64,000 nt of DNA, from IMG/VR virus record IMGVR_UViG_3300021978_000001, positions 352,001 through 416,000 of that record; one strand, 5' to 3'. This DNA comes from a virus. Taxonomy: Duplodnaviria > Caudoviricetes. A model generated the notes under the pieces. It ran no database searches and was not told the origin of the DNA. It was given only the letters and a program-made list of their open reading frames with translations. Of this stretch, positions 37,710-56,652 are shown one piece after another; within the stretch, counting starts at the first letter, position 1, and every line of letters begins with the position of its first letter. A program made the position numbers and the translations under genes.

Positions 37710-37739
37710 CGTCCTCCTCCCCCATTATGGAAGTTGAAT

Positions 37740-38279
37740 ATGCAAGCACAGAGACAGACACGATTCTCGACCCCCTGGACCTTGCAGCTACGATCGCTGC
37801 TCGATCATATCCAGGATGGGTTCATTCAGATGCCGGAGCACGAGGTCCCCACGGCTCCACCCCCCGGCTTCGATCAATACGTGCGTCTGATCCTCCAGGG
37901 TTCCTTTGCGGGGACCTTCCATGTCGAAAATCTCTTCGAGGACGATAACGTGGTGAATCGGTTGGTCGATTACAAGCTCAACCACCTCCAGGCATTGATT
38001 CACGCTCTCGATGACACCATGCCTTACGAGCTTGATCTACGTGAGTACAACGCGACGATCGCAGCGTACCCGGAAGACCAACCGACCACGGTACTCTTGA
38101 GCGTCTTTAGCAATCGTTCGTTGATCTTCGAGGCGGGACGTGAGATGGGGGAGCAAGTCCAATTCGTGTTGGAAGCGTATCTGGACAGGTTCTATGAGGC
38201 GACGGTGACACGCGTGGATTGGTGTGAGGACCCTTCGCCTTACCTGGATATGACGCAGCGCGAAGGGCTCCCGTTCTGA
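37740..38279 (+). CDS. Hypothetical protein
   Basis: ORF 37734..38279. Confidence 0.65.
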   Translation: MQAQRQTRFSTPWTLQLRSLLDHIQDGFIQMPEHEVPTAPPPGFDQYVRLILQGSFAGTFHVENLFEDDNVVNRLVDYKLNHLQALIHALDDTMPYELDLREYNATIAAYPEDQPTTVLLSVFSNRSLIFEAGREMGEQVQFVLEAYLDRFYEATVTRVDWCEDPSPYLDMTQREGLPF

Positions 38280-38282
38280 GCG

Positions 38283-38978
38283 TTACAGGAGAGCTACCTG
38301 ACCATCGACCAGCTCGGACAGGATGTTGTGACCGACCTCGAAGACCTCTTCGGGGTTTTTTTCTGTCGTGTCGATGGTCCAAAAGTTGAACTTCACGTCA
38401 GGGTAGTAGGAGGGCAAGGTCGAGACCAGATCACCCCGGATGATCTCGTAGCGTGTCTGGAGGCGCCGAAGATGAGAGACCCGGCGAAACTTGGTCATGG
38501 CTTCGACCTCATCCGGGCGCGTCCCCTGTTGCATCTCGGCTGCCAGACGCGCTTCCACGCGGTCACTCGCCTTGTTGGGGTCGCAAGTAAGCTGGACAAT
38601 AGAGCATTCCATACGCGTGCTCTTGACCGTACCGAGGCGCGTGATCCCGAAGAACGCTTCTGCCCCGAGCTTGTAAATAGCGTCGTAGCGCATCGCGTCC
38701 TTGAGGCACCCCTTGCCAAAACCCTGGTATGCCAGGGTGGTGATGAAGGAACGGTCAAAGATCAACACGCCCGGGTGACCGAGGCGTTGAGACACCTCGC
38801 GCTGGAAGTCTTGCAGGTGGTAGAGCGAGCGCGCGGTGAGGTCTGCCTTCTGCTCGCCTTGAGGGAGCCTTGTGGGGAAGTTGTGCGACTTGATGTCGGG
38901 TTGCTTTTGTGTGAGGTGCTTGACCAGCGTGCTTTTGCCGGTGCCGTCGATCCCGTCGATAATCATCATCTTGATCAT
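38283..38978 (-). CDS. tmk: Thymidylate (dNMP) kinase-like P-loop protein
   Basis: IIDGIDGTGKST P-loop; LIFDRSFITTLAYQG. Confidence 0.8.
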   Translation of the reverse strand: MIKMMIIDGIDGTGKSTLVKHLTQKQPDIKSHNFPTRLPQGEQKADLTARSLYHLQDFQREVSQRLGHPGVLIFDRSFITTLAYQGFGKGCLKDAMRYDAIYKLGAEAFFGITRLGTVKSTRMECSIVQLTCDPNKASDRVEARLAAEMQQGTRPDEVEAMTKFRRVSHLRRLQTRYEIIRGDLVSTLPSYYPDVKFNFWTIDTTEKNPEEVFEVGHNILSELVDGQVALL

Positions 38979-39535
38979 GTGTCTTCTCCTGTGTTGTGTG
39001 TAAGCTCCGCATCGAGCGCGTCGAGGTCAAAGATTGCGTATTCGCCCTTGTCCCTGTCCTTGTTATCGTGAATGAACATGGGGTGTTCGTTACTGCGTGG
39101 GTGAGGCATGTTGTTGATAGGAATCCCCCAGAAGCCTTGCGTCTGGGAATGTCTCCAACCTCTAACATCCCCCAAAGGGACCTCATCCATGCGCAACCCC
39201 AACCAGGTCTTGATCAGGGTGGTCTCGTAACCTTGGGATAAGGTGAGTTCGACGACTTGATTGTGCAAGAGCGCAAAGCCGTAACCCTTCTCTTTCTGTT
39301 CATCGGTCAAGCTCATGTTGACCCATTCGATTTGCAGCTCGCGGGGACGTTGGTGTCTCACTTGCCGGGGTTTCCAGTTCAAGCTCTTGGCGTAGGTGGT
39401 CGCTTCATGCCAATCTTCCCAGATCCAGTTGTCCAACAAGGCATCGACTCGCTCCGCGTCCCAGTTGGAGAGCGCACTGCGCAGGTCGCCCCATACCGAG
39501 TCGGGAGCCTTGAGTGATTGCTTTTCTTCGGACAT
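38975..39535 (-). CDS. Hypothetical protein
   Basis: AGGAGG RBS before MSEEKQ. Confidence 0.7.
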   Translation of the reverse strand: MSEEKQSLKAPDSVWGDLRSALSNWDAERVDALLDNWIWEDWHEATTYAKSLNWKPRQVRHQRPRELQIEWVNMSLTDEQKEKGYGFALLHNQVVELTLSQGYETTLIKTWLGLRMDEVPLGDVRGWRHSQTQGFWGIPINNMPHPRSNEHPMFIHDNKDRDKGEYAIFDLDALDAELTHNTGEDT

Positions 39536-39602
39536 GAAAAAACCTCCTGTGTAGGTCACAGGAGGTTCTCATAAAAGCGGGGCGCCGTCAAGAGAAACGG
39601 CC

Positions 39603-40583
39603 TTAGCCGTAGTATTTCGCGCCCCAACAGAAGGTGCCGTCATACTGCATGTAGATGGGGTGGAGTTGTGTGACACACTCGCTCACGACCTCGCCCTGGT
39701 CGTCCGTGATCTCGGGGCGCTGATAGACCACACAGAAGCCGTTTTGCCAGTTGGGGTTGAACATGTACTCGCACTGCGCGAGATCGTACAGGCCGCCGTT
39801 CTCCAGTGCTTGTTTGTTACGGCGGCGATCCTTGTGGTGGTACCATCCCATGCGGTGCGTGTGGCCCGTGATCAGGAAGTCGGAGCCCGCCTTGTCCAGT
39901 TCGCCACGAGCCGAGTACGCACTCATGCCGCGCGTCACGGTGCCGTGGTAGACGTCGAGGTTGCCGATGGTCAGCATGACGCCATAGTCGTAGTAATGAA
40001 TCCCGAGACGCTCGAACTCCAGCAGGCTTTCGAGCGAGAAGGAACGCAGGCCATAGAGACCGTGCTCGCGCTTGATGAGGCGGCGCAGGCGCTCTTCGTG
40101 GTTGCCTTCGGTGAAGTGGAGGACGGCGGTGGGGCAGGAGCGGCGGAGACGTTCGAGGATTTCGAGGCCCTCATCGAGTTCCTCTTGCAGGGTGGGGAAC
40201 CCGACATCCTTGGGGAAGGTCGAGATGGAGTGGCAGTCGAGGAAGTCCCCGTTGATCACGATGATCTCGGGTTGGATGTCCCTGCACAGCTCCAGCCACC
40301 CTTCGACCGCCTGTTTGTTGTGGAAGGGTACGTGTACATCGTTGACCACGACAATGGTGCGCCATCCCTCGGGTGCGCCTCCAAGACGCCGCCGCGCTGC
40401 TTCCTCTTCCGAGGAGGCCAGGTAGAAGGTAGGCGCCTCCAACCCGTTTCGGGTAAACGCACCGGCGAGTGCGTTCGAGGTCTCCCCGATCTTCTCCAGC
40501 GCTTCCTCGTAGTTGGTGGTGTGCAACAGCGTGTCGAGCGCTTCACGGATGAAATCGGGTGTCCACTTCTTACTCGTGCTCAT
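39603..40583 (-). CDS. Calcineurin-like metallophosphoesterase
   Basis: DVH, GDFLD, GNHE, YHG and GHTH motifs in order; GAGG RBS before MSTSKK. Confidence 0.88.
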   Translation of the reverse strand: MSTSKKWTPDFIREALDTLLHTTNYEEALEKIGETSNALAGAFTRNGLEAPTFYLASSEEEAARRRLGGAPEGWRTIVVVNDVHVPFHNKQAVEGWLELCRDIQPEIIVINGDFLDCHSISTFPKDVGFPTLQEELDEGLEILERLRRSCPTAVLHFTEGNHEERLRRLIKREHGLYGLRSFSLESLLEFERLGIHYYDYGVMLTIGNLDVYHGTVTRGMSAYSARGELDKAGSDFLITGHTHRMGWYHHKDRRRNKQALENGGLYDLAQCEYMFNPNWQNGFCVVYQRPEITDDQGEVVSECVTQLHPIYMQYDGTFCWGAKYYG

Positions 40584-40789
40584 GTTTACCTCTGCAACGG
40601 GTGAAATCCCTTCAAGTCCCTCGAAGATTGTTTTTTCTTCTCGGTTGGGGTGTGGTACCGTGAGAGCGCCGTCCCCAACGCACCAGACCTGACTTACAAA
40701 ACGAATGTTGAAGTCATTGATCGGATGAATGGGAAAAAGATGCCTCGGGGCCACAGTTCTTGATTGAAATCCCTTGAAAGGATCGCATT

Positions 40790-41680
40790 ATGCCGGATAA
40801 CACGCCCTCTCCTGAGTCTTCTCAGCTTCCTACGTTGCAAGACCGTCGTATTCGTATTGTTCCGCACCTCAAAGGACACAAGGAGGGGGTGATCTGTTTC
40901 GAGACTGGATGTTCGCGTGACGAGGTTTGTGATCTGCATCACTTCGTCTTCGATCATCACGGTTCCGAACACCATCCCTTGTTTTCTCCGTCTGCGTTGA
41001 GGCTGTTTCATGAGCGTTTGATGCTTGGCCAGGCCATGCCTTCTGTCTTGCTGTTGACCCGATGGTATCGCATCGACCAGATCATGGCGTCTGCGATGTT
41101 CATCGAACCCGGTCTCCTCTTGCTTCAAGGCTTTACTAGCCTGGTGCAATCGGTCGATCAGGTCGAGCGGCTGGGTCCTCTCGCCCTGGCGCATATCCCC
41201 TGGGAACACAAGGAATTGATCCGCCTACTCCGTCACGTTACCCGATTGTACAGATCACGTCAAGCACATCAGGAGTCTCTTTCGACACAAGACCATGAAA
41301 ACGCATTGACTTTACTCGTGCAATGCACCCAATACATCGCGACCTATCTTATGGAAGGCACCTTGCCTCTCGAACCTGAAACCCCTCCTGAGCTGGACGT
41401 GCTCGCCGCAGGAGAGGGGTTTATCGCGTTTACATGTGAGGAGTGGCCCTGGGATGTGGCGTGGTCGAGTGGCGCGGTGTGGGGTGTGTGGTTTGGTCCA
41501 AGACAAACCGAGGTGCGCGCGAAGTCCACCTTGATCGGGTTGGAGACGCGCGTGGTCACAGAGCGACTCGGGGAGATGTTCACCTATCAGGATGACATCT
41601 CCCCGGGTTGGGTGTCTTCGTCTGTGTTCGAGGACCGGGAAGCTCAGGAAGAGCTGTTGGAAAGGCTACTGGGCTCTTGA
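40790..41680 (+). CDS. Hypothetical protein, possible degenerate DHH-family phosphoesterase
   Basis: VFDHHG motif; other DHH motifs not clearly seen. Confidence 0.4.
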   Translation: MPDNTPSPESSQLPTLQDRRIRIVPHLKGHKEGVICFETGCSRDEVCDLHHFVFDHHGSEHHPLFSPSALRLFHERLMLGQAMPSVLLLTRWYRIDQIMASAMFIEPGLLLLQGFTSLVQSVDQVERLGPLALAHIPWEHKELIRLLRHVTRLYRSRQAHQESLSTQDHENALTLLVQCTQYIATYLMEGTLPLEPETPPELDVLAAGEGFIAFTCEEWPWDVAWSSGAVWGVWFGPRQTEVRAKSTLIGLETRVVTERLGEMFTYQDDISPGWVSSSVFEDREAQEELLERLLGS

Positions 41681-41714
41681 AGACGGGCTCGTGAAGGCAG
41701 GTCCTTGACCGCGC

Positions 41715-41951
41715 TCAAATGACTTCGAGGTACTTGAGCCCTGCCATAATCGCGATGATGACCAGGACCAGGAACACCATGACGAGAACCAGAATCACGA
41801 TGAAGATCAGAAGTTCGATCAGCGTGAAGCCCTGACGTTGCTTCATCGAGGCAGATAAAGCCTCACGCAATGCGCCAGGCAGCGCGTGAAGCCTTGCGTA
41901 CCGTGAATGCGCGGAGAGATGCGCGGAGAGATAAGCGAAGATAGCCAACAT
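41715..41951 (-). CDS. Miniature type IV prepilin-like protein
   Basis: AGGAG RBS; KQRQG/FTLIELL class III signal followed by long hydrophobic helix and almost no globular domain. Confidence 0.7.
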   Translation of the reverse strand: MLAIFAYLSAHLSAHSRYARLHALPGALREALSASMKQRQGFTLIELLIFIVILVLVMVFLVLVIIAIMAGLKYLEVI

Positions 41952-42013
41952 GTGTGCTCCTATGAGAGGTGTAAAGGACTCCACCTCCAGGGTAGCTCGA
42001 CACATCTTGCTCG

Positions 42014-42811
42014 TCAAGCTCCCTCGAACGCGCGCTTTGCCTGGTTGTAGCCCGACTCGATCAGGGCTTCTGCTTCCTCGCGGTTCATGTTGAAGTTCAA
42101 GCTCCCGGAGCCCGCCTTCAACCCTACCATGCGCGCGTGCACCGCGTCTTCGATGTGCTCTCTCGCGATTGCCCCCATCATGATGTCCACGACGCTCATG
42201 GCGTAATCCTTGAGCGTCTCGGGTGGTTGTGGCGCTGCGAGGGGCCTGATCTGGAAGCCAAAGACCCCCTCACCCAGCCCATAGATGTCAAGCGGGAAGT
42301 TCGATGCGACGCCGCCGTCAATGTGACGCTCACCCTTGATGCGCGCGGGCCGGAACACGAACGGGATCGAGATCGAGGCGCGCACGGCGTCTGCCATGTT
42401 TACATGGGGTGTGCCCTCAGTGGAGTAGACCATGTGGTTGGGGCCATAGTTGCCCGCGCCATCGAGGTTGACTGTTCCGATGTTGCACGGGATGTAGGCG
42501 TCCCCGAGGGTCGCGACAAACACCTGCTGCATCGCGTGCTTGATGCGGTCCCCTTTGATGAGCCCCCAGTCACACCAGGGCTTCCAGGACCAATCCACGA
42601 GCTTTTTGGGACCGGGGAGCATGTCGAGCAGCATATCGTTAAGCTGCGGTCCCGGGCTGTATCCCGAGGCAACAGCGGCGGCGATGATGGCGCCTCCCGA
42701 GACACCTGTGATATGCTCGATCTGGTAACCTTGGTCGGCCAAATACCAGAGCGCGCCTGCGTGGAGAGGGTACAGGAGCCCTGCACCTGAGAGTACGATC
42801 TTGAGTTTCAT
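42014..42811 (-). CDS. Patatin-like phospholipase
   Basis: SGAG..H.G oxyanion loop, GVSGG (GxSxG), ASISIPFVF, DGG. Confidence 0.9.
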   Translation of the reverse strand: MKLKIVLSGAGLLYPLHAGALWYLADQGYQIEHITGVSGGAIIAAAVASGYSPGPQLNDMLLDMLPGPKKLVDWSWKPWCDWGLIKGDRIKHAMQQVFVATLGDAYIPCNIGTVNLDGAGNYGPNHMVYSTEGTPHVNMADAVRASISIPFVFRPARIKGERHIDGGVASNFPLDIYGLGEGVFGFQIRPLAAPQPPETLKDYAMSVVDIMMGAIAREHIEDAVHARMVGLKAGSGSLNFNMNREEAEALIESGYNQAKRAFEGA

Positions 42812-42812
42812 G

Positions 42813-43247
42813 TCACTCCTCCTCGGTGAGTGTGGCGAGGTCCACATCGACCATGCTGTCTTCCGGGCGGAGTGCAGGGGCAGGGAGTCTCGCGTTGCTA
42901 TCCAACTTCCAGGGGTTGCCCTCGCCTTCCTTTTTTATCACGGGGAGCTTGCGCGTCTCTCGAAGCTCCTGCTGACGCGCCTGGGGGAGCTGTTGGGTCA
43001 CCTTGAGGGTGTCGCTCAGGCTTTCGCTGTCCAGGCTCGCAGGGGTCTTGTGCTCGTGCCGCTCGAAGGCTTCGCGCCCGCGTTTTTCTCGCAGGGCCGC
43101 ACGCCATTCACTCCAGTCCACGAGTTGGTCCTGCTCATCATACCCTATGGTGCGAGAGCTTTCTGCTTGTCGTCTACGTTCACGCAAGGCGCGCTTTTGC
43201 CAGGGCGCAGGCTTGATGATTTGACACAACGGTGCTTTCTTTTTCAT
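42813..43247 (-). CDS. Hypothetical protein
   Basis: ATGA overlap with upstream gene. Confidence 0.6.
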   Translation of the reverse strand: MKKKAPLCQIIKPAPWQKRALRERRRQAESSRTIGYDEQDQLVDWSEWRAALREKRGREAFERHEHKTPASLDSESLSDTLKVTQQLPQARQQELRETRKLPVIKKEGEGNPWKLDSNARLPAPALRPEDSMVDVDLATLTEEE

Positions 43248-44371
43248 CCGTCCAGACCATCCTCGAAGCCATAAAAGCTCGCCGTGCAAAACGTCCCATC
43301 AAACGGCGTGTCGGTATCCAGCTTGACCTTGATGCGGAGACCCTGATCCGCGCGCAAGCGCACGACCGCCTGGTAGTCCCAGGGGAACGTCAGCACAGGA
43401 GAGGTCGAATCTCGCCAGGTCGGGTTCGCGTTGGTGGTGTACGGGATCGTGGCGTAAGCTCCGTTTGCTTCGTTGCAGTAGTCGTAGAAGCTCTTGTAGG
43501 TCGCAGGTGCTCCGAGTTCCACACGATCTGTGGGCTGCAATAGCCCTTGCTCGACGGCATCGGGCGCGAACACAGCGGCATACCCTTCGATGAAGAAATG
43601 GATCGTGTCACGAATCGAGGTGTCCTGGGTGAATTGAACCTCGACACGGCTCAGGTCGATCTGGCGCCCCTCTTCGGGTTGGATGTAGAAATCGGAGGTG
43701 GTCGCATGGTAGTAATCAATAGTGACAGCTTGTCCTGCGGTCAGCGCCTCGTGGAAGTGGACGACCCCTGCGGCGTAGTCGATGGTGTAATCTCTCTTGA
43801 AAGACGGGTCCTGGTTCTCGCCGTATTGCGCGAGCGTTTCTGTCTTGAGATCACCGTCAACGTACACGCGGGGTTGATACGAGGTTCCTTCTGGAGAGAG
43901 GATGCTGTCCTCTTTCCACTGCTTGCCGTGAGTCATGTCGATGAGGTTGACCTGGCTGACGTTGTACGTCTTGTAATCGCCTGCATGCCCCAGGGCTTCT
44001 CCCTCCACCAAAGCCGCGCAGGTGTACCAGGTGGTCGGGTCCGTCCAACGATGGGATACCTTGTTAAAGCGATCGACGCGTGGGGGGTAAGTCGAAACCG
44101 TGATCGAGGGTTGCTTTTTTACAGGCAAGTTACTTGTAGGGGTCAGCGGTTCGCCTGAATGATTGGCAATGATCTCGTCGAGTGCCGCTTTTTGGGCAGG
44201 TTCAAGCTCGACCTTGAAGTGGATGAGGATCGTCGAGCCTTCGAGCTGGATGCCGAGAGGATCGAGCGCGATCGTGATGTCTGGGCTCGCCTGGATTTCT
44301 TTTTCGAGACGTCCCGGATTAGCTTTGTTGTTCGGGGTCGCGTCGAGGTTATAGGTGTAGGTCGTGGCCAT
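43244..44371 (-). CDS. Putative virion structural/decoration protein
   Basis: TGATG overlap; beta-rich; N-terminal domain similar to that of 44371..45150. Confidence 0.55.
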   Translation of the reverse strand: MATTYTYNLDATPNNKANPGRLEKEIQASPDITIALDPLGIQLEGSTILIHFKVELEPAQKAALDEIIANHSGEPLTPTSNLPVKKQPSITVSTYPPRVDRFNKVSHRWTDPTTWYTCAALVEGEALGHAGDYKTYNVSQVNLIDMTHGKQWKEDSILSPEGTSYQPRVYVDGDLKTETLAQYGENQDPSFKRDYTIDYAAGVVHFHEALTAGQAVTIDYYHATTSDFYIQPEEGRQIDLSRVEVQFTQDTSIRDTIHFFIEGYAAVFAPDAVEQGLLQPTDRVELGAPATYKSFYDYCNEANGAYATIPYTTNANPTWRDSTSPVLTFPWDYQAVVRLRADQGLRIKVKLDTDTPFDGTFCTASFYGFEDGLDG

Positions 44372-45150
44372 CAGCTTATCCTTTGGATGAAGAGACGCGC
44401 ATTTTGGATATAAGCCGTACCGAGAAGCCCCGAGTCCCGGCGCCATTGGATCGCGATTTGATTGACACCGGATAACGTCGCGACCTTGATGCCTCCATTG
44501 CTTGTCCGCACAGAACGGTAGACTTTCAAGAGGCTCAGGATAAACGTCACGTCGAGCAGGAAAGCGCTCGTTGCCGTGTTCCCATAGGTCTCACTCGTGG
44601 TCAAGTTTCGGAGCCGCGCTTGTGCGATACGGTTGGGGCCTGCGTCTCCACGAAGCTCACAGCTCCAGTAAATCAAGTATGTACCTGCCTCGAAGTCCTG
44701 CATGATACTTGCACGGGTGGCAAAAGTCTCACTCGTGGTTCCTGTTTCCGCATTCACTTCGGTATGCCAATGCTGAGACGTGATGTTGATTTGAGCGATA
44801 AGCGCGTTGACATTCTCGCCGTTGAGGTCGCCCACGTTGTAGAGGTTGTTATTCTGGAGGTCGAGGTCTTCATCCCATGCTGCGGCCTCTTCGCTTGCTG
44901 TAGTTTCGGGATCTGAAGCGGTATGCGCAGCGATAATGCCATCCAGTTCGGTGACTTCTCCACCTGTCAATGCGGGGTCTGTCCAGACTTCGATTGAAGT
45001 TGGAGGGTTTGACATGTTATCTTCATGCTTCACGTACTCCAGCTTCGCGGCGAAGGTCGAGGCTTCGATCTCTCCACGGAGCTTGGAGAGGCTGGCGGTA
45101 CCATCCAACGTATCTGTCGCAATCGTATATGTGTATACGGTAAAACTCAT
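44371..45150 (-). CDS. Putative virion fibre/decoration protein
   Basis: DLDLQNNNLYNVG fibre-like motif; beta-sandwich-like C-terminus. Confidence 0.55.
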   Translation of the reverse strand: MSFTVYTYTIATDTLDGTASLSKLRGEIEASTFAAKLEYVKHEDNMSNPPTSIEVWTDPALTGGEVTELDGIIAAHTASDPETTASEEAAAWDEDLDLQNNNLYNVGDLNGENVNALIAQINITSQHWHTEVNAETGTTSETFATRASIMQDFEAGTYLIYWSCELRGDAGPNRIAQARLRNLTTSETYGNTATSAFLLDVTFILSLLKVYRSVRTSNGGIKVATLSGVNQIAIQWRRDSGLLGTAYIQNARLFIQRIS

Positions 45151-45983
45151 GCTGATACCCTGTAGAACATGAAATAGCTACGGTCTACGAAACTATTCGT
45201 GCCGTTGGACCCCCCAAACGAGAACGTGATGTTGTATGTCCCGGCGCTCAGGTTAAGAAGGCGGAATCCCGCCGCAAGGAAGCGTTGGTTGGACCCGAAA
45301 CCATCCAGGAGACCTCCCGCGTCTTGAGGCTCTTGTCTATGGAAGCTGATCTCCGTGTTGTCGAGAGAGATGCGTGCGATGAAATCCGAGTTGGTAGAGT
45401 TGTAGGCCCATGTGTAGCTGAAGTCCAGCCTGTAAAGACCGTCAACGCTGGCAGTTACACTGAAGCTGTCTCGATCAAACAAACCATCATTTGGCGGGGG
45501 GTTACCGTTGAAGGGGGCGGATACTCCTTGCTCGGTGGTATTCGTCACCGTGGTTAGGTCGTTGAAACGACCAAGCTCTGCATTCAAGGCTTCGATCGCA
45601 CTTTGAACATCGGTCACCCCCAACAGGGTCAAGGCATCATCGTAGTCGATCTCGGCTGCAAGCAGGCCCGGGTCTGCGTTTGCATCACGAATGACTAGAG
45701 CGTATGGGCCACTATCCGGGAAGGGTACGGTCTGGAGGAAGGACTCGACATCGGCTTGTGCGACATCGGTTGTACCGTCGTTGAGGATAAGCGTGGAAGA
45801 GCCCGCACCAAAGGCGTCATCTTGCGTGAGCACCAGGAGGTTTCGGCTCTCGGAGATCTCTTGCAAGGCGTCCTGGTTGGTGAACGTGACCGAACCCCCC
45901 GAACCCGGGATAAGGACTCCCAGGTCACTGATAAGGACATCGGTGACCTGGGAGACGTTGGTTTTGATGATCAGGGTGGCCAT
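45147..45983 (-). CDS. Putative virion fibre/decoration protein
   Basis: N-terminal ~85 aa strongly similar to 45993..47423; VQSAIEAL fibre-type motif. Confidence 0.6.
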   Translation of the reverse strand: MATLIIKTNVSQVTDVLISDLGVLIPGSGGSVTFTNQDALQEISESRNLLVLTQDDAFGAGSSTLILNDGTTDVAQADVESFLQTVPFPDSGPYALVIRDANADPGLLAAEIDYDDALTLLGVTDVQSAIEALNAELGRFNDLTTVTNTTEQGVSAPFNGNPPPNDGLFDRDSFSVTASVDGLYRLDFSYTWAYNSTNSDFIARISLDNTEISFHRQEPQDAGGLLDGFGSNQRFLAAGFRLLNLSAGTYNITFSFGGSNGTNSFVDRSYFMFYRVSA

Positions 45984-45992
45984 TCAAGCCTC

Positions 45993-47423
45993 TTACACGA
46001 TGGCGAGCACTTCATTCACTTCGACCAGCGCCACCACATTGTCGAACGCGGAACCGAGCGCGATACCTCCCACGCGCTCCATACTCAAGCTCAACTCGTC
46101 TCCTGCGTTGTAAGACACGTTCAAGGCTGTGGAGGCAGCCGTGTCGTTTCCGTTAGGCAAAGACAGGGAGGCCACTTCAGTGCCGTTGATCTTGATCGAG
46201 AGCTTATAGTTGTTCGAGGTTGGCGCCGTGTCTACTTGCAAGGTCGCAGCAGTGATCACGCCGTTGCGTGGGAGATACAACCCTGCGGCACTGGTCGCGA
46301 CATTGCCTGCGCTCTTCAGGAACCGCACACCGCCCAAGGGTACGCTCAAGTTGGAGCCGAAGGTGATCCACTTTCCAACGTATCGGGAGTCCTGGAGCGC
46401 GGGATTGTTAGCACCCGAGTTTTGCCAAACCCCTGCGTCTGCGTCCCACACGTAAATCGTGTCTTCGTCCCTGGTAACGTGGGTTTCCGAAGGTTGGAGG
46501 GTTGCAGTTGCACGTCCAAAACCAAACGTCTTGACCGCTGGGTCGGCTCCAGGCAACTGAGCGCTCACCGAAGAGGTGTAATCCAGGAGACCCTCGAAGC
46601 TCACGTACTGCACGTCTGCGGGAGTCGTGAACGTACCGTAGATGCGATCGTCGTAAGAATCTTGAGCCGAGTTGTCGGTACGGTAAATTGCCACCACACG
46701 GGCGTTCAACTGGTCGAGGGCGTCTTCGGTGACGGCGCTCCAGAGCGTCGAGTCTGTGTTGATGGTTGTGGTCAGGTTGTCCATCGTCTCCAAGGCGTCC
46801 GCGCCGATCTCTACATCGAACGCGACCGCTGGAGTTGCAGTGAACGTGAACGTCTCGGTGGTCGTGCCATCCGTGATCACGAGCGTGTCCCCTTCGGCTG
46901 CATTATTGTCCAACCAGAATGGAATCGCTTGAGAGATCGCATCATTGACGGAATCGAGCTGCTCGGTGACGAGGATCAGCTCTTTCCAGGTGCGGAACCC
47001 GCTCGTGCGGTCATCCACGTATTGCTTGTTTGCGGCATCAGACGCATTGACAGGGGTAGGCAGTCCCGTGATCGTCGCGGTGCCGTCGAATGTGACGTTA
47101 TCATCGACTTCACCATCAGCGTTGTTCTTGACTACGCCGAAGTCATTGCTCGCGTCGGGGAGGATGAGCGTGTCGAGGAAGTTCTCGGCATCCGCCTGGT
47201 CGATGTCTGCGGTGCCGTCATTGAGGATGAGTGTCGAGGAGCCCGCGCCGAAGGCGTCGTCTGTCAAGAGCGTGCGCAGGTTGCGCGACTCCTGAAGCTC
47301 GACAAGCTCATCATTGGATGTGAAGGTGTCTTGACCCCCACCGAGGGGGATGAAGATGCCAACGTCTGCGATCAGGACGTCAGCGCCGGTACCTGCATTT
47401 GATTTGATAACAAGAGTGGCCAT
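45993..47423 (-). CDS. Putative virion fibre/decoration protein
   Basis: ITGLPTPVNASDAANKQYVD tail-fibre-type repeat; T/D/A-rich. Confidence 0.65.
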   Translation of the reverse strand: MATLVIKSNAGTGADVLIADVGIFIPLGGGQDTFTSNDELVELQESRNLRTLLTDDAFGAGSSTLILNDGTADIDQADAENFLDTLILPDASNDFGVVKNNADGEVDDNVTFDGTATITGLPTPVNASDAANKQYVDDRTSGFRTWKELILVTEQLDSVNDAISQAIPFWLDNNAAEGDTLVITDGTTTETFTFTATPAVAFDVEIGADALETMDNLTTTINTDSTLWSAVTEDALDQLNARVVAIYRTDNSAQDSYDDRIYGTFTTPADVQYVSFEGLLDYTSSVSAQLPGADPAVKTFGFGRATATLQPSETHVTRDEDTIYVWDADAGVWQNSGANNPALQDSRYVGKWITFGSNLSVPLGGVRFLKSAGNVATSAAGLYLPRNGVITAATLQVDTAPTSNNYKLSIKINGTEVASLSLPNGNDTAASTALNVSYNAGDELSLSMERVGGIALGSAFDNVVALVEVNEVLAIV

Positions 47424-47444
47424 GGGTGGCTCCTTTTTTGGAAG

Positions 47445-48431
47445 TCAGGCGGCGGTCATCTGAACCGTCACCACGATGTTTTCAAATAGACTCTTGCTAC
47501 TTCCAGACGTGCGTCTTACCTGCACTTGAACACGTTGTCCCGTGATCAGGGGAATCATGACGGCTTGGGTGAGGCTCTGGACCCCTGCTGGAATGGGCAC
47601 GCTCGTCATCAAGACCTGGTTCACAAATAGATCAACGGTGTAATCCTGTGTGTCTGTAGCATCGAGAGAGACTCCCACAGCCGAGAACGTCCCCGCTGCG
47701 GGTGCGACCCAGGGCGCGCTCGATGTCACGACCGTTCCTGCTTTCAGATACAAACGCCCGGCTCCCGCAGGGACCGCGATGTCCGAGGTCAACGTGAGGA
47801 CGCTGAGTTCCTGGCCACCGCCCGCAGCGGCGGCGTTGGTCAACACCCACCAGTTTCCGAGACCATCTGCTTGCAAGGTCACCGCACCGAGCGCATCACT
47901 CAAAGCATAGGTGCCTGGGACGCCTTCGATGGTGTTCCCCACAGGCGCCGTGATCAGGACGCTGTTGCCATCGAGAGATGTCTTCTTGATGGTGATGCGT
48001 GTGCCTTCTGGGGTACGCTCCTGGGGGAAGGGTTCGGAGAAGATGTCCGGGAGGTTCACGAGGACATCCCCGCCATCCGTGCTCACCGTGAGCAAGGTAT
48101 CATCGGCCTGGACATCATAGGCGGGCACGAATTGCTCGATGCCCTCATCGACTTCGATGTTCTGGAGGATAAAGGCTTCGAGCAAGCCTCCATCAAGGAA
48201 ACCCCGGATGCTGCCTTGCTGGTAACTGGTCAGGGTTCGATCGGTCAGGAGGATGTCCACGGTCTCTCGGAAAGGGACGTAGACCGGGATCTTTTCATTG
48301 TCGCGTTTGTTCTCAGGGGTGTCCAGGTCACTCAGGAAGAGACTACCGCCCGAGACGCCTGTGTGCCGCAAGCGAATGAACTTCGCTCCCTTGCGGATGG
48401 GGTAGGTGTGTGCGTTGATCAGGCCAGGCAT
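47445..48431 (-). CDS. Putative virion structural protein
   Basis: VNLP...ITIKK...V.I.A.....I.G...ADG..NW fibre-type module; C-terminal domain similar to that of 45993..47423. Confidence 0.55.
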   Translation of the reverse strand: MPGLINAHTYPIRKGAKFIRLRHTGVSGGSLFLSDLDTPENKRDNEKIPVYVPFRETVDILLTDRTLTSYQQGSIRGFLDGGLLEAFILQNIEVDEGIEQFVPAYDVQADDTLLTVSTDGGDVLVNLPDIFSEPFPQERTPEGTRITIKKTSLDGNSVLITAPVGNTIEGVPGTYALSDALGAVTLQADGLGNWWVLTNAAAAGGGQELSVLTLTSDIAVPAGAGRLYLKAGTVVTSSAPWVAPAAGTFSAVGVSLDATDTQDYTVDLFVNQVLMTSVPIPAGVQSLTQAVMIPLITGQRVQVQVRRTSGSSKSLFENIVVTVQMTAA

Positions 48432-53605: not shown

Positions 53606-53817
53606 TATCCTCGCCCCGCACACGCGGGGAACACTGGTCAATGTCTGAGCGCACGATCTCAGTGATCGGACCATCCCCGCGCACGCGGGGAACACGGTGA
53701 GGGCTGGAGCCGTCACGAGGTGGACATCGGACCATCCCCGCACGCGCGGGGAACACATCTGGTCCCAGGTCTCGGGTGTCCAGTTCACCGGACCATCCCC
53801 GCGCACGCGGGGAACAC
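53606..53817 (-). CRISPR. Type I-E-like mini-array: 4 repeats, 3 spacers of 32 nt
   Basis: Repeats at 53606 (degenerate), 53667, 53728, 53789; minus-strand consensus GTGTTCCCCGC-N4-GCGGGGATGGTCCG. Confidence 0.95.
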
Positions 53818-56207: not shown

Positions 56208-56652
56208 GGGGCTATCCCCGCGCATGCGGGGAATGTCGTTTCGCGCGTAAACAGGGCATCGAGCCATCCCCACAGATGTGGGGAACATAGGAGGCGAGCG
56301 CCAACATGAGACCAGATCCTCGGACCATCCCCGCACATGCGGGGAAAACATGTCCATATTCTCACCAATGAGTGAGGGCGAGCCATCCCCGCATGCGCGG
56401 GGAACACGGGTATACCCGGTATAGGAGGTATTCCTGGAATAGGGCCATCCCCGCATGCGCGGGGAACACAAAGAGTGGTGCGTGCGCGGTTCCAGACCCA
56501 CCGGACCATCCCCGCACGCGCGGGGAACACGACAGCAGCGCCCACACGGGCATCACACGCCCCGGACCATCCCCGCGCATGCGGGGAACACTCCGTCAAT
56601 GAGGTCAGCATCCGCCCATATTGCGGACCATCCCCGCGCATGCGGGGAACAC
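56208..56652 (-). CRISPR. Type I-E-like array: 8 repeats, 7 spacers (23, 32, 29, 33, 32, 32, 32 nt in ascending coordinates)
   Basis: Repeats at 56208, 56260, 56321, 56379, 56441, 56502, 56563, 56624; degeneracy increases away from the leader. Confidence 0.95.

Follow-up and report, generated by a model that had tools for sequence, protein, structure and literature searches.

A predicted headless type IV prepilin with an unusually long leader encoded by a marine megaphage

Locus and architecture of the mini-prepilin

The window analysed here is a stretch of 64,000 nucleotides and corresponds to bases 352001-416000 of a virus record that is 437,490 bp long, carries direct terminal repeats and is rated 100% complete. 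The gene under study is thus phage-encoded, as the first-pass annotation had stated. In public runs, the phage and partial relatives of it were found in hydrothermal-vent and seawater metagenomes. The locus contains the following features.

41715..41951, minus strand: mini-prepilin ORF P0001, 78 codons plus stop (ORF list, translation, PF07963 with 30 bits and orthologues at the same slot)
41957..41961, minus strand: Shine-Dalgarno sequence AGGAG, 5 nt before the ATG (read directly; identical in the related contig L004)
41829..41951, minus strand: leader of 41 codons with Gly at -1 (alignments and in-frame dN/dS)
41907..41930, minus strand: 12-nt tandem repeat inside the leader, two copies, encoding LSAH-LSAH (read directly)
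41814..41831, minus strand: predicted prepilin-peptidase site G/FTLIE with Gly-1, Phe+1 and Glu+5 (PF07963 positions 1-26 and family alignment)
41718..41828, minus strand: mature part of 37 residues, one hydrophobic helix equivalent to alpha1-N plus the tail LKYLEVI (translation and AF2)
42014..42847, minus strand: patatin-like phospholipase gene (265-aa form from 42811 in relatives; PF01734 with 99.5 bits), 62 nt before the mini-prepilin ORF
40790..41680, plus strand: convergent gene of 296 aa, ending 34 nt from the mini-prepilin stop (ORF list)

A 78-aa ORF with an AGGAG ribosome-binding site had been reported without its strand. It is present on the minus strand, with its start ATG at 41951 and its stop at 41717-41715. 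The 41-aa leader ending in KQRQG, the stretch FTLIELL with Glu at +5 and the hydrophobic helix could all be read in the translation as well. Behind Glu5 of FTLIELL, 26 uncharged residues with a mean Kyte-Doolittle value of 2.76 are followed by the tail of seven residues. The leader has a net charge of +4, and its length of 41 aa is atypical of type IV pilin-like proteins. Two blocks are kept in it, namely M-x-A-I-x-A-Y-L-x-A-H and L-P-G-A/S-L-R.

Structure prediction by AF2 with the family alignment gave a confident helix at residues 44-77 (pLDDT 82-96) as the sole confident element of P0001, and no C-terminal globular head (alpha1-C on a beta-sheet) was predicted. The leader was modelled with two low-confidence helices at residues 2-13 and 26-38 (pLDDT 51-59). 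The residue count after Gly-1 and the single helix agree with the earlier description of a mature peptide of 37 aa without a head domain. For comparison, 43 complete prepilin-motif ORFs from metagenome hits have between 73 and 394 residues after Gly-1.

The Pfam family PF07963 (N_methyl) matched the 78-aa form with 30.0 bits (E 3.5e-7; cut-off 21.2) and a 43-aa form, consisting of the last 43 codons, with 32.1 bits; 31.8 bits were obtained in the genome-wide search. P0001 was the sole N_methyl match (E 7e-8) in the 437,490-bp genome and also its sole six-frame match to the pattern G[FM..]T/S-x-x-E followed by a hydrophobic run. The assignment as prepilin with a class III signal was borne out by the PF07963 score past the cut-off and by the motif G-F-T-L-x-E-L, which is invariant in the relatives. 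The match to TIGR02532 that had been named as a check turned out to be borderline: at a cut-off of 16.3 bits, the 78-aa form fell short with 14.8 bits and the 43-aa form passed with 16.6 bits. All NCBIfam matches to P0001 were pilins or pseudopilins and were restricted to the N-terminus, the nearest being of the ComGE, HpsC and PpdD type. Among solved chains, MshA, PilA and Geobacter PilA-N (7tgg, 9egp) were nearest, matched over residues 1-25. The Flp family was not among the Pfam matches to P0001 at E values up to 0.1, and the site G/FTLIE is of the T4a/T2SS type, not G/xxxxEY. For the leader, no family match was obtained in Pfam or PHROG.

In PHROG, the 59-position model phrog_10597 matched P0001 with E 0.03 (15.1 bits), a second allele of the gene (type B, see below) with E 7e-4 and a short form of it with E 2.5e-3. 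The matches of all three forms were confined to profile positions 1-27, which hold the generic motif. Weak matches of P0001 to phrog_13280, 11263, 3433, 27437 and 11596 were equally generic. As the PHROG matches are weak and cover the generic motif only, the mini-prepilin is of the same kind but no sequence member of those families. As read from the translation and the predicted structure, P0001 is a 'headless' type IV prepilin, in which a basic and unusually long leader and a canonical site are joined to an alpha1-N helix alone.

Start choice and selection on the precursor

Relatives were sought among 5.8 billion proteins and then via homologues of the upstream patatin-like gene. P0003, an 82-aa relative with 89% identity to P0001, lies on the 74.7-kb contig L004, which aligns with window positions 43251-31750 at 91% identity. 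Upstream of an internal Met, the codons of the window and L004 differ by 8.5 synonymous and 4.5 non-synonymous changes. For the leader of this pair, dS was 0.40-0.42 and dN 0.06 with a ratio of 0.14, while dN was at least as high as dS in the other two frames. Across within-allele pairs, the leader dN/dS ranged from 0.14 to 0.25 in the coding frame only. When two independent within-allele pairs were pooled, 13.5 of the 20 leader changes were synonymous (binomial P = 2e-4). The mature part showed five synonymous and no non-synonymous changes between the related contigs L009 and L010.

All indels in the mini-prepilin keep the frame. The 12-nt leader repeat is present in three copies in L004 and in two in the window, the sole indel between the two, so that four residues (H/L/S/A/E) are gained or lost in frame; the 12-nt in-frame insertion was found in L004 and one contig besides. 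In the type B allele (L009), an AGGAG stands 6 nt before the upstream ATG, and no Shine-Dalgarno sequence precedes the internal Met.

A 43-aa protein starting at the internal Met was considered as main product and rejected. In the window, its GAGG lies 14 nt upstream, the type B allele has no Shine-Dalgarno sequence for it, and the codons upstream of it are under purifying selection. Because this selection acts in the frame of the leader, the 78-aa precursor including its long leader is taken as the translated product. That the ORF is translated, as the first-pass annotation presumed, is supported by the Shine-Dalgarno sequence in both alleles and by the in-frame purifying selection on the long leader. 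At the level of sequence comparison, these data establish the mini-prepilin as a real, translated and selected gene with its start at the upstream ATG. Concerning transcripts, none of the public runs with the locus was an RNA run, and next to no sequence words matched in one metatranscriptome of the same sample.

The selection on the leader also bears on the question of which part of the protein is active. The leader itself could be that part, either as a cytoplasmic peptide of ~35-45 residues released by PilD or, being long, as a poorly cleaved mimic that blocks PilD; this is possible, though we regard it as unlikely. It would account for the low dN/dS values and for the blocks conserved in both alleles at the N-terminus and before the basic stretch. 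The length of the leader points in the same direction, since described prepilin leaders are shorter than the 35-45 aa found in this family, typically with 5-30 residues, and have 5-7 residues in T4a pilins. However, a sister form at the same slot manages with a leader of only ten residues: P0054 in L007/L008 has 42 aa with a mature part of 32 residues. In addition, the middle of the long leader tolerates indels and a repeat of variable copy number, and the leader as a whole combines low AF2 confidence with the lack of a family match. The location would be suitable, as prepilin leaders lie on the cytoplasmic side and are cleaved off there by PilD, which cuts behind Gly-1 and also methylates residue +1 (PMC13170266).

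Accessory slot, alleles and recombination

The mini-prepilin is the last gene of a run on the minus strand that further comprises five ORFan genes (43244-48431), a gene of 144-158 aa and the patatin-like gene. The convergent 296-aa gene marks the end of this operon. It had no Pfam or PHROG match and is a conserved neighbour in L004, L009, L010 and L007. A scan beside the mini-prepilin detected neither a sigma-70-like promoter nor an intrinsic terminator, and folding of the RNA of its 3' end gave no terminator-like structure (z = -0.45). As neither was detected, co-transcription with the upstream genes is likely. A segment of 300 nt at 40477-40776 was 99-100% identical in all four close relatives with flanks of 90-97%. 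It covers the divergent region from the start of a metallophosphoesterase gene (326-aa form) to the 296-aa gene, and the sole sigma-70-like match (40764-40791, plus strand) adjoins it; it is probably a shared regulatory region.

The patatin-like gene is a core gene of the clade with 47 homologues, most of them on large viral-type contigs. Downstream of it, the mini-prepilin occupies the same slot in five related contigs, with two extra genes in between in L007. The patatin gene occurs without the mini-prepilin in L006 (from a 397-kb contig), L012-L016 and L051-L053. Cargo at the slot in relatives includes a 156-aa gene and a DUF4942 gene (L007:3871-5164), a GIY-YIG and a 190-aa gene (L012:4771-5777), a 211-aa gene (L015:4866-5501) as well as a 211-aa and a 68-aa gene (L016:1268-2176). 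As distant relatives have different cargo or nothing after the patatin gene, the position is considered an accessory-gene slot or hot spot. The patatin-like protein P0008 (L051:4001-5047) of a 54%-identical relative also matched Xre_MbcA_ParS_C (PF09722), a domain familiar from the antitoxin partner in toxin-antitoxin pairs.

At the DNA level, the resemblance to L004 (91% identity) breaks off abruptly at ~43251. The window genes upstream of this point (43251-48431) encode proteins of 400, 259, 278, 476 and 328 aa and are replaced by unrelated large genes in relatives, namely of 909, 860 and 393 aa (L004:1-8700), 362 and 376 aa (L009:1-3568), 914 aa (L007:1-2676) and 2342 aa (L006). This swap-prone module gave a weak tail-fibre match (phrog_7049, E 0.0012). 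Pfam detected nothing on the variable upstream genes, and the 476-aa protein matched only viral hypothetical clusters below a useful score. The mini-prepilin is the same in two phages with unrelated upstream variable genes and thus does not co-vary with these putative receptor-binding genes, a point against the interference with host pili considered below.

The family comprises two long-leader alleles of 72-82 aa with leaders of 35-45 aa. The second of them, type B with 72 aa, is represented by P0055 and P0056 in L009, L010 and L011. The N-terminal leader block, L-P-G-x-L-R, S-M-K-x-R-Q-G, F-T-L-x-E-L and the C-terminal A-G-L-K-Y-L-E-V-I are constant across both long alleles, and the position of the stop is identical. 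G-F-T-L-x-E-L is invariant in all five family members including the short form. The family is tiny: 1.84 billion 50% clusters contained three representatives of it, and it formed four 90% clusters in the set of 5.8 billion proteins.

While the four close relatives share a backbone of 90-99% identity, a divergence island was found at 41955-41668 with an identity of 0.62-0.75 between alleles versus 0.9 or more in the flanks. Between alleles, the leader had a dN of 0.28-0.36 and the helix one of 0.17, compared to 0.003-0.02 in the adjoining patatin gene. The patatin gene of the window is closest to that of L009 (dS 0.26), yet its mini-prepilin is of the L004 type. With the allele type at odds with the patatin tree, it follows that the mini-prepilin has undergone allele exchange through recombination. 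These comparisons demonstrate, for the sequences at hand, that the mini-prepilin evolves fast and in discrete alleles. Further divergence islands between the allele groups are located at 39002-39301 (0.65-0.80) in a 194-aa gene (38975-39559, minus strand) and at 37952-38101 (0.58-0.69) in a 181-aa ORF (37734-38279), with most flanks at about 0.9 or more. The mini-prepilin is therefore not the sole fast-evolving small gene of this block.

Over the mature part, a perfect run of 122 nt is shared by the window and L004, the second longest in 11.5 kb. A special nucleotide constraint on this part was considered and rejected in view of other runs of ~100 nt, the mosaic backbone and the five synonymous changes between L009 and L010. 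The identity is best explained as a recent recombination tract.

Searches in wider collections returned no further members. Megablast of window positions 38000-46000 against 50,697 phage records gave no match, nor did tblastn when these records were searched with the 43-aa form, the latter probably since the query is short and of low complexity. Scans of IMG/VR with the patatin protein, P0001 and the family alignment yielded no more than two full-length pilins, which are unrelated and lie on contigs that probably derive from hosts. A scan of JGI metagenomes with the family alignment gave 21 loci, all of them ordinary pilins or pseudopilins. HMMER of the family alignment against 1.84 billion representatives recovered the family's own three, and the other 163 hits were N-termini of generic pilins, fragments and a single repeat protein. 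In four seawater or marine runs, short contigs (151-1802 bp) matched window positions 41793-41846 over ~35-53 nt (QG-FTLIELLI) with 80-90% identity and were unlike the window beyond. These contigs probably carry ordinary pilin genes of bacteria that live alongside, with the motif kept even in DNA.

A decaying and functionless remnant of a captured host pilin gene would be tiny in its distribution, as this family is, and headless if the pilin gene had been truncated at its 3' end. This origin leaves the purifying selection on leader and helix, the conserved strong ribosome-binding site, the identical stop position and C-terminal AGLKYLEVI of both alleles and the differently built short form at the same slot without a reason, and a remnant is hardly credible.

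The gene order suggests another role, in which a small hydrophobic protein with a single helix serves as membrane or lysis accessory of the patatin-like phospholipase (holin-like, membrane-perturbing or anchoring) and carries the motif as a leftover of its origin. It is encoded 62 nt downstream of the phospholipase gene on the same strand at the end of the operon, and no promoter or terminator of its own was detected. Such a role is rather improbable. In both alleles as well as in the short form, G-F-T-L-x-E-L does not vary while the other helix positions are free to change, which argues for selection for the peptidase site. Most relatives have the patatin without the mini-prepilin, and the two genes are not adjacent in L007. 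Moreover, no holin family appeared among the Pfam (E up to 0.1) or PHROG matches (E up to 10) for P0001. Candidates for muralytic enzymes with an SLT domain were found only at 290.5 kb and at 430.7 kb of the genome, ~103 and 37 kb away from the mini-prepilin at 393.7 kb, and Phage_lysozyme had no match in the phage genome.

Possible interference with host type IV filament machines

The complete phage genome gave no match to prepilin peptidase (Peptidase_A24) or to the PilC-type platform (T2SSF) and one sub-threshold match of 14 bits to the PilB/T2SSE family. As the phage has no prepilin peptidase of its own, processing would fall to a PilD-type peptidase of the host. The mini-prepilin would insert into the host inner membrane, where it would be recognised, and probably cut and N-methylated, by this enzyme. 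Efficient cleavage behind a leader of 35-45 aa is not assured. By analogy with known pilins, we see an even chance that the mini-prepilin is processed by host PilD and then interferes with type IV pili (T4P), the T2SS pseudopilus or the competence pilus.

Such interference might proceed along three routes, which are not separable here and are kept side by side. Firstly, the mini-prepilin could compete with host prepilins for PilD. Secondly, it could dock via Phe1 and Glu5 into the growing fibre or the platform and act as a poison subunit. Docking of pilin subunits is driven by Glu5 and the N-terminus, and the mini-prepilin retains both. The fibre core is formed by the N-terminal helices of the pilins (PMC12952977). 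Thirdly, it could mimic the membrane pilin pool read by sensors such as PilS, by which pilin expression would be turned off; through PilS, pilA is subject to feedback from membrane pilin pools and is repressed by unprocessed membrane pilins (PMC13170266).

The likely benefit would be the loss of the pilus receptor on infected cells, whereby superinfecting phages would be excluded or progeny spared wasteful adsorption. The first-pass annotation had proposed a dominant-negative pilin or titration of PilD, leading to superinfection exclusion or altered motility. Drawn by analogy, this function is plausible. It would fit the accessory slot and the fast allelic evolution of the mini-prepilin and presupposes a host with T4P, T2SS or PilD. 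Given that the mini-prepilin closes an operon of large variable ORFan genes with a weak tail-fibre match and that no promoter of its own was found, the timing of expression may be late, which would be unusual for classical superinfection exclusion. Taken as a whole, the structural part of the earlier annotation is upheld by profile score, conservation and selection, and the potential role of the conserved 35-45-aa leader was overlooked in it.

With regard to the host, type I-E-like CRISPR repeats were observed in the phage at window positions 53658-53817 and 56312-56652. The pattern of the repeat with a free 4-nt loop was counted 38 times on a contig of a Burkholderiales MAG and, in Gordonia aichiensis, 26 plus 8 times. 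Single matches were obtained in several actinomycetes; this is too little for naming a host.

Truncated PilA-like proteins (P-PilA) comprising about the N-terminal 60 residues have been described in six virulent Pseudomonas phages, and their incorporation into T4P or an inhibition of assembly was proposed in passing, by which phages that depend on the pilus would be blocked (Sztanko et al., Cell Rep 2026, PMC12952977). Like the mini-prepilin, they are phage-encoded and consist of the prepilin signal and the N-terminal helix only. The mature part is shorter here, with 37 residues versus roughly 50 in P-PilA, whereas the leader of 35-45 aa is conserved and under selection and theirs is short. 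The carrier differs as well, being an uncultured marine phage of 437 kb with recombining alleles.

The FimU mimics (P-FimU) of prophages, known from F10-like Pseudomonas phages, defend against pilus-tip phages (PMC12952977). They share with the mini-prepilin that they are fast-evolving phage proteins of the type IV pilin class using the host pilus machinery, and P-FimU serves competition between phages. In contrast, P-FimU is a functional minor pilin of full length; it carries extra loops and takes the place of host FimU at the tip, leaving the pilus unharmed. A comparable part for the mini-prepilin, as a harmless extra minor subunit in host pili or pseudopili that alters the fibre by masking or thinning its receptor surface, is very unlikely. 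Phe1, Glu5 and the helix are indeed the parts that build the fibre core, but only seven residues past the helix leave nothing for the fibre surface. Lacking a head, the mini-prepilin would be unable to mask this surface, unlike P-FimU, and would leave a gap instead.

PfsE, a protein of filamentous (Pf) phages, inhibits T4P to prevent superinfection (PMC8764522). It is likewise a very small phage peptide of the inner membrane and constitutes the closest experimentally supported functional analogue, although it has no prepilin signal and no sequence relationship is expected. PfsE acts by binding PilC.

Pilins cut down largely to the N-terminal helix are also known from Geobacter PilA-N ('Geopilin domain 1', 61-residue mature part) and the Flp/Tad pilins. 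PilA-N differs from the mini-prepilin by ~30 residues beyond alpha1-N and by pairing with PilA-C. PilA-N and Flp are encoded together with assembly genes, whereas the mini-prepilin stands alone in a phage, and the Flp motif is different. With ordinary type IV pilins, T2SS pseudopilins and competence pilins, the mini-prepilin shares Gly-1, Phe+1, Glu+5, the hydrophobic alpha1-N and a score above the Pfam cut-off. It differs from them in the absence of alpha1-C and the beta-sheet head, in the far longer leader and in a genome without assembly genes.

The long leader could moreover turn the prepilin into a device directed at PilD. It would then be a slowly cleaved or uncleaved mimic that shuts down pili, type II secretion and competence together, or a tethered pro-peptide from which PilD releases a fragment of ~40 residues. 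In the latter case, the fragment would be freed only where and when PilD is active. We hold such a device to be doubtful. If it existed, the short-leader form would be a plain 'poison subunit', and comparing the two forms would be a natural way of telling the mechanisms apart.

For the reading favoured here, interference with host PilD-dependent filaments, it has to be considered that tampering with pili by phage pilin stubs is already in print as an idea; new is one more family. Particular to it are the mature part of 37 residues, the selected leader of 35-45 residues, to which the short-leader form is a natural counterpart, a divergence island that holds two recombining alleles, and a marine megaphage as carrier. 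The case adds clean evidence that a headless stub is, as far as the sequence comparisons reach, a selected and translated gene, and it adds the behaviour of a conflict gene with accessory slot, divergence island and allele shuffling. Comparing the long- and short-leader forms could separate the 'PilD decoy' from the 'poison subunit' mechanism. If the proposed function is true, PilD-dependent machines could also be disabled with a peptide of 37 residues, which would make it a simple tool for research. Type IV pili and related structures commonly serve as receptors for phages and are major organelles of colonisation, motility and DNA uptake, and phages that switch them off reshape both the behaviour of their hosts and the competition between phages.
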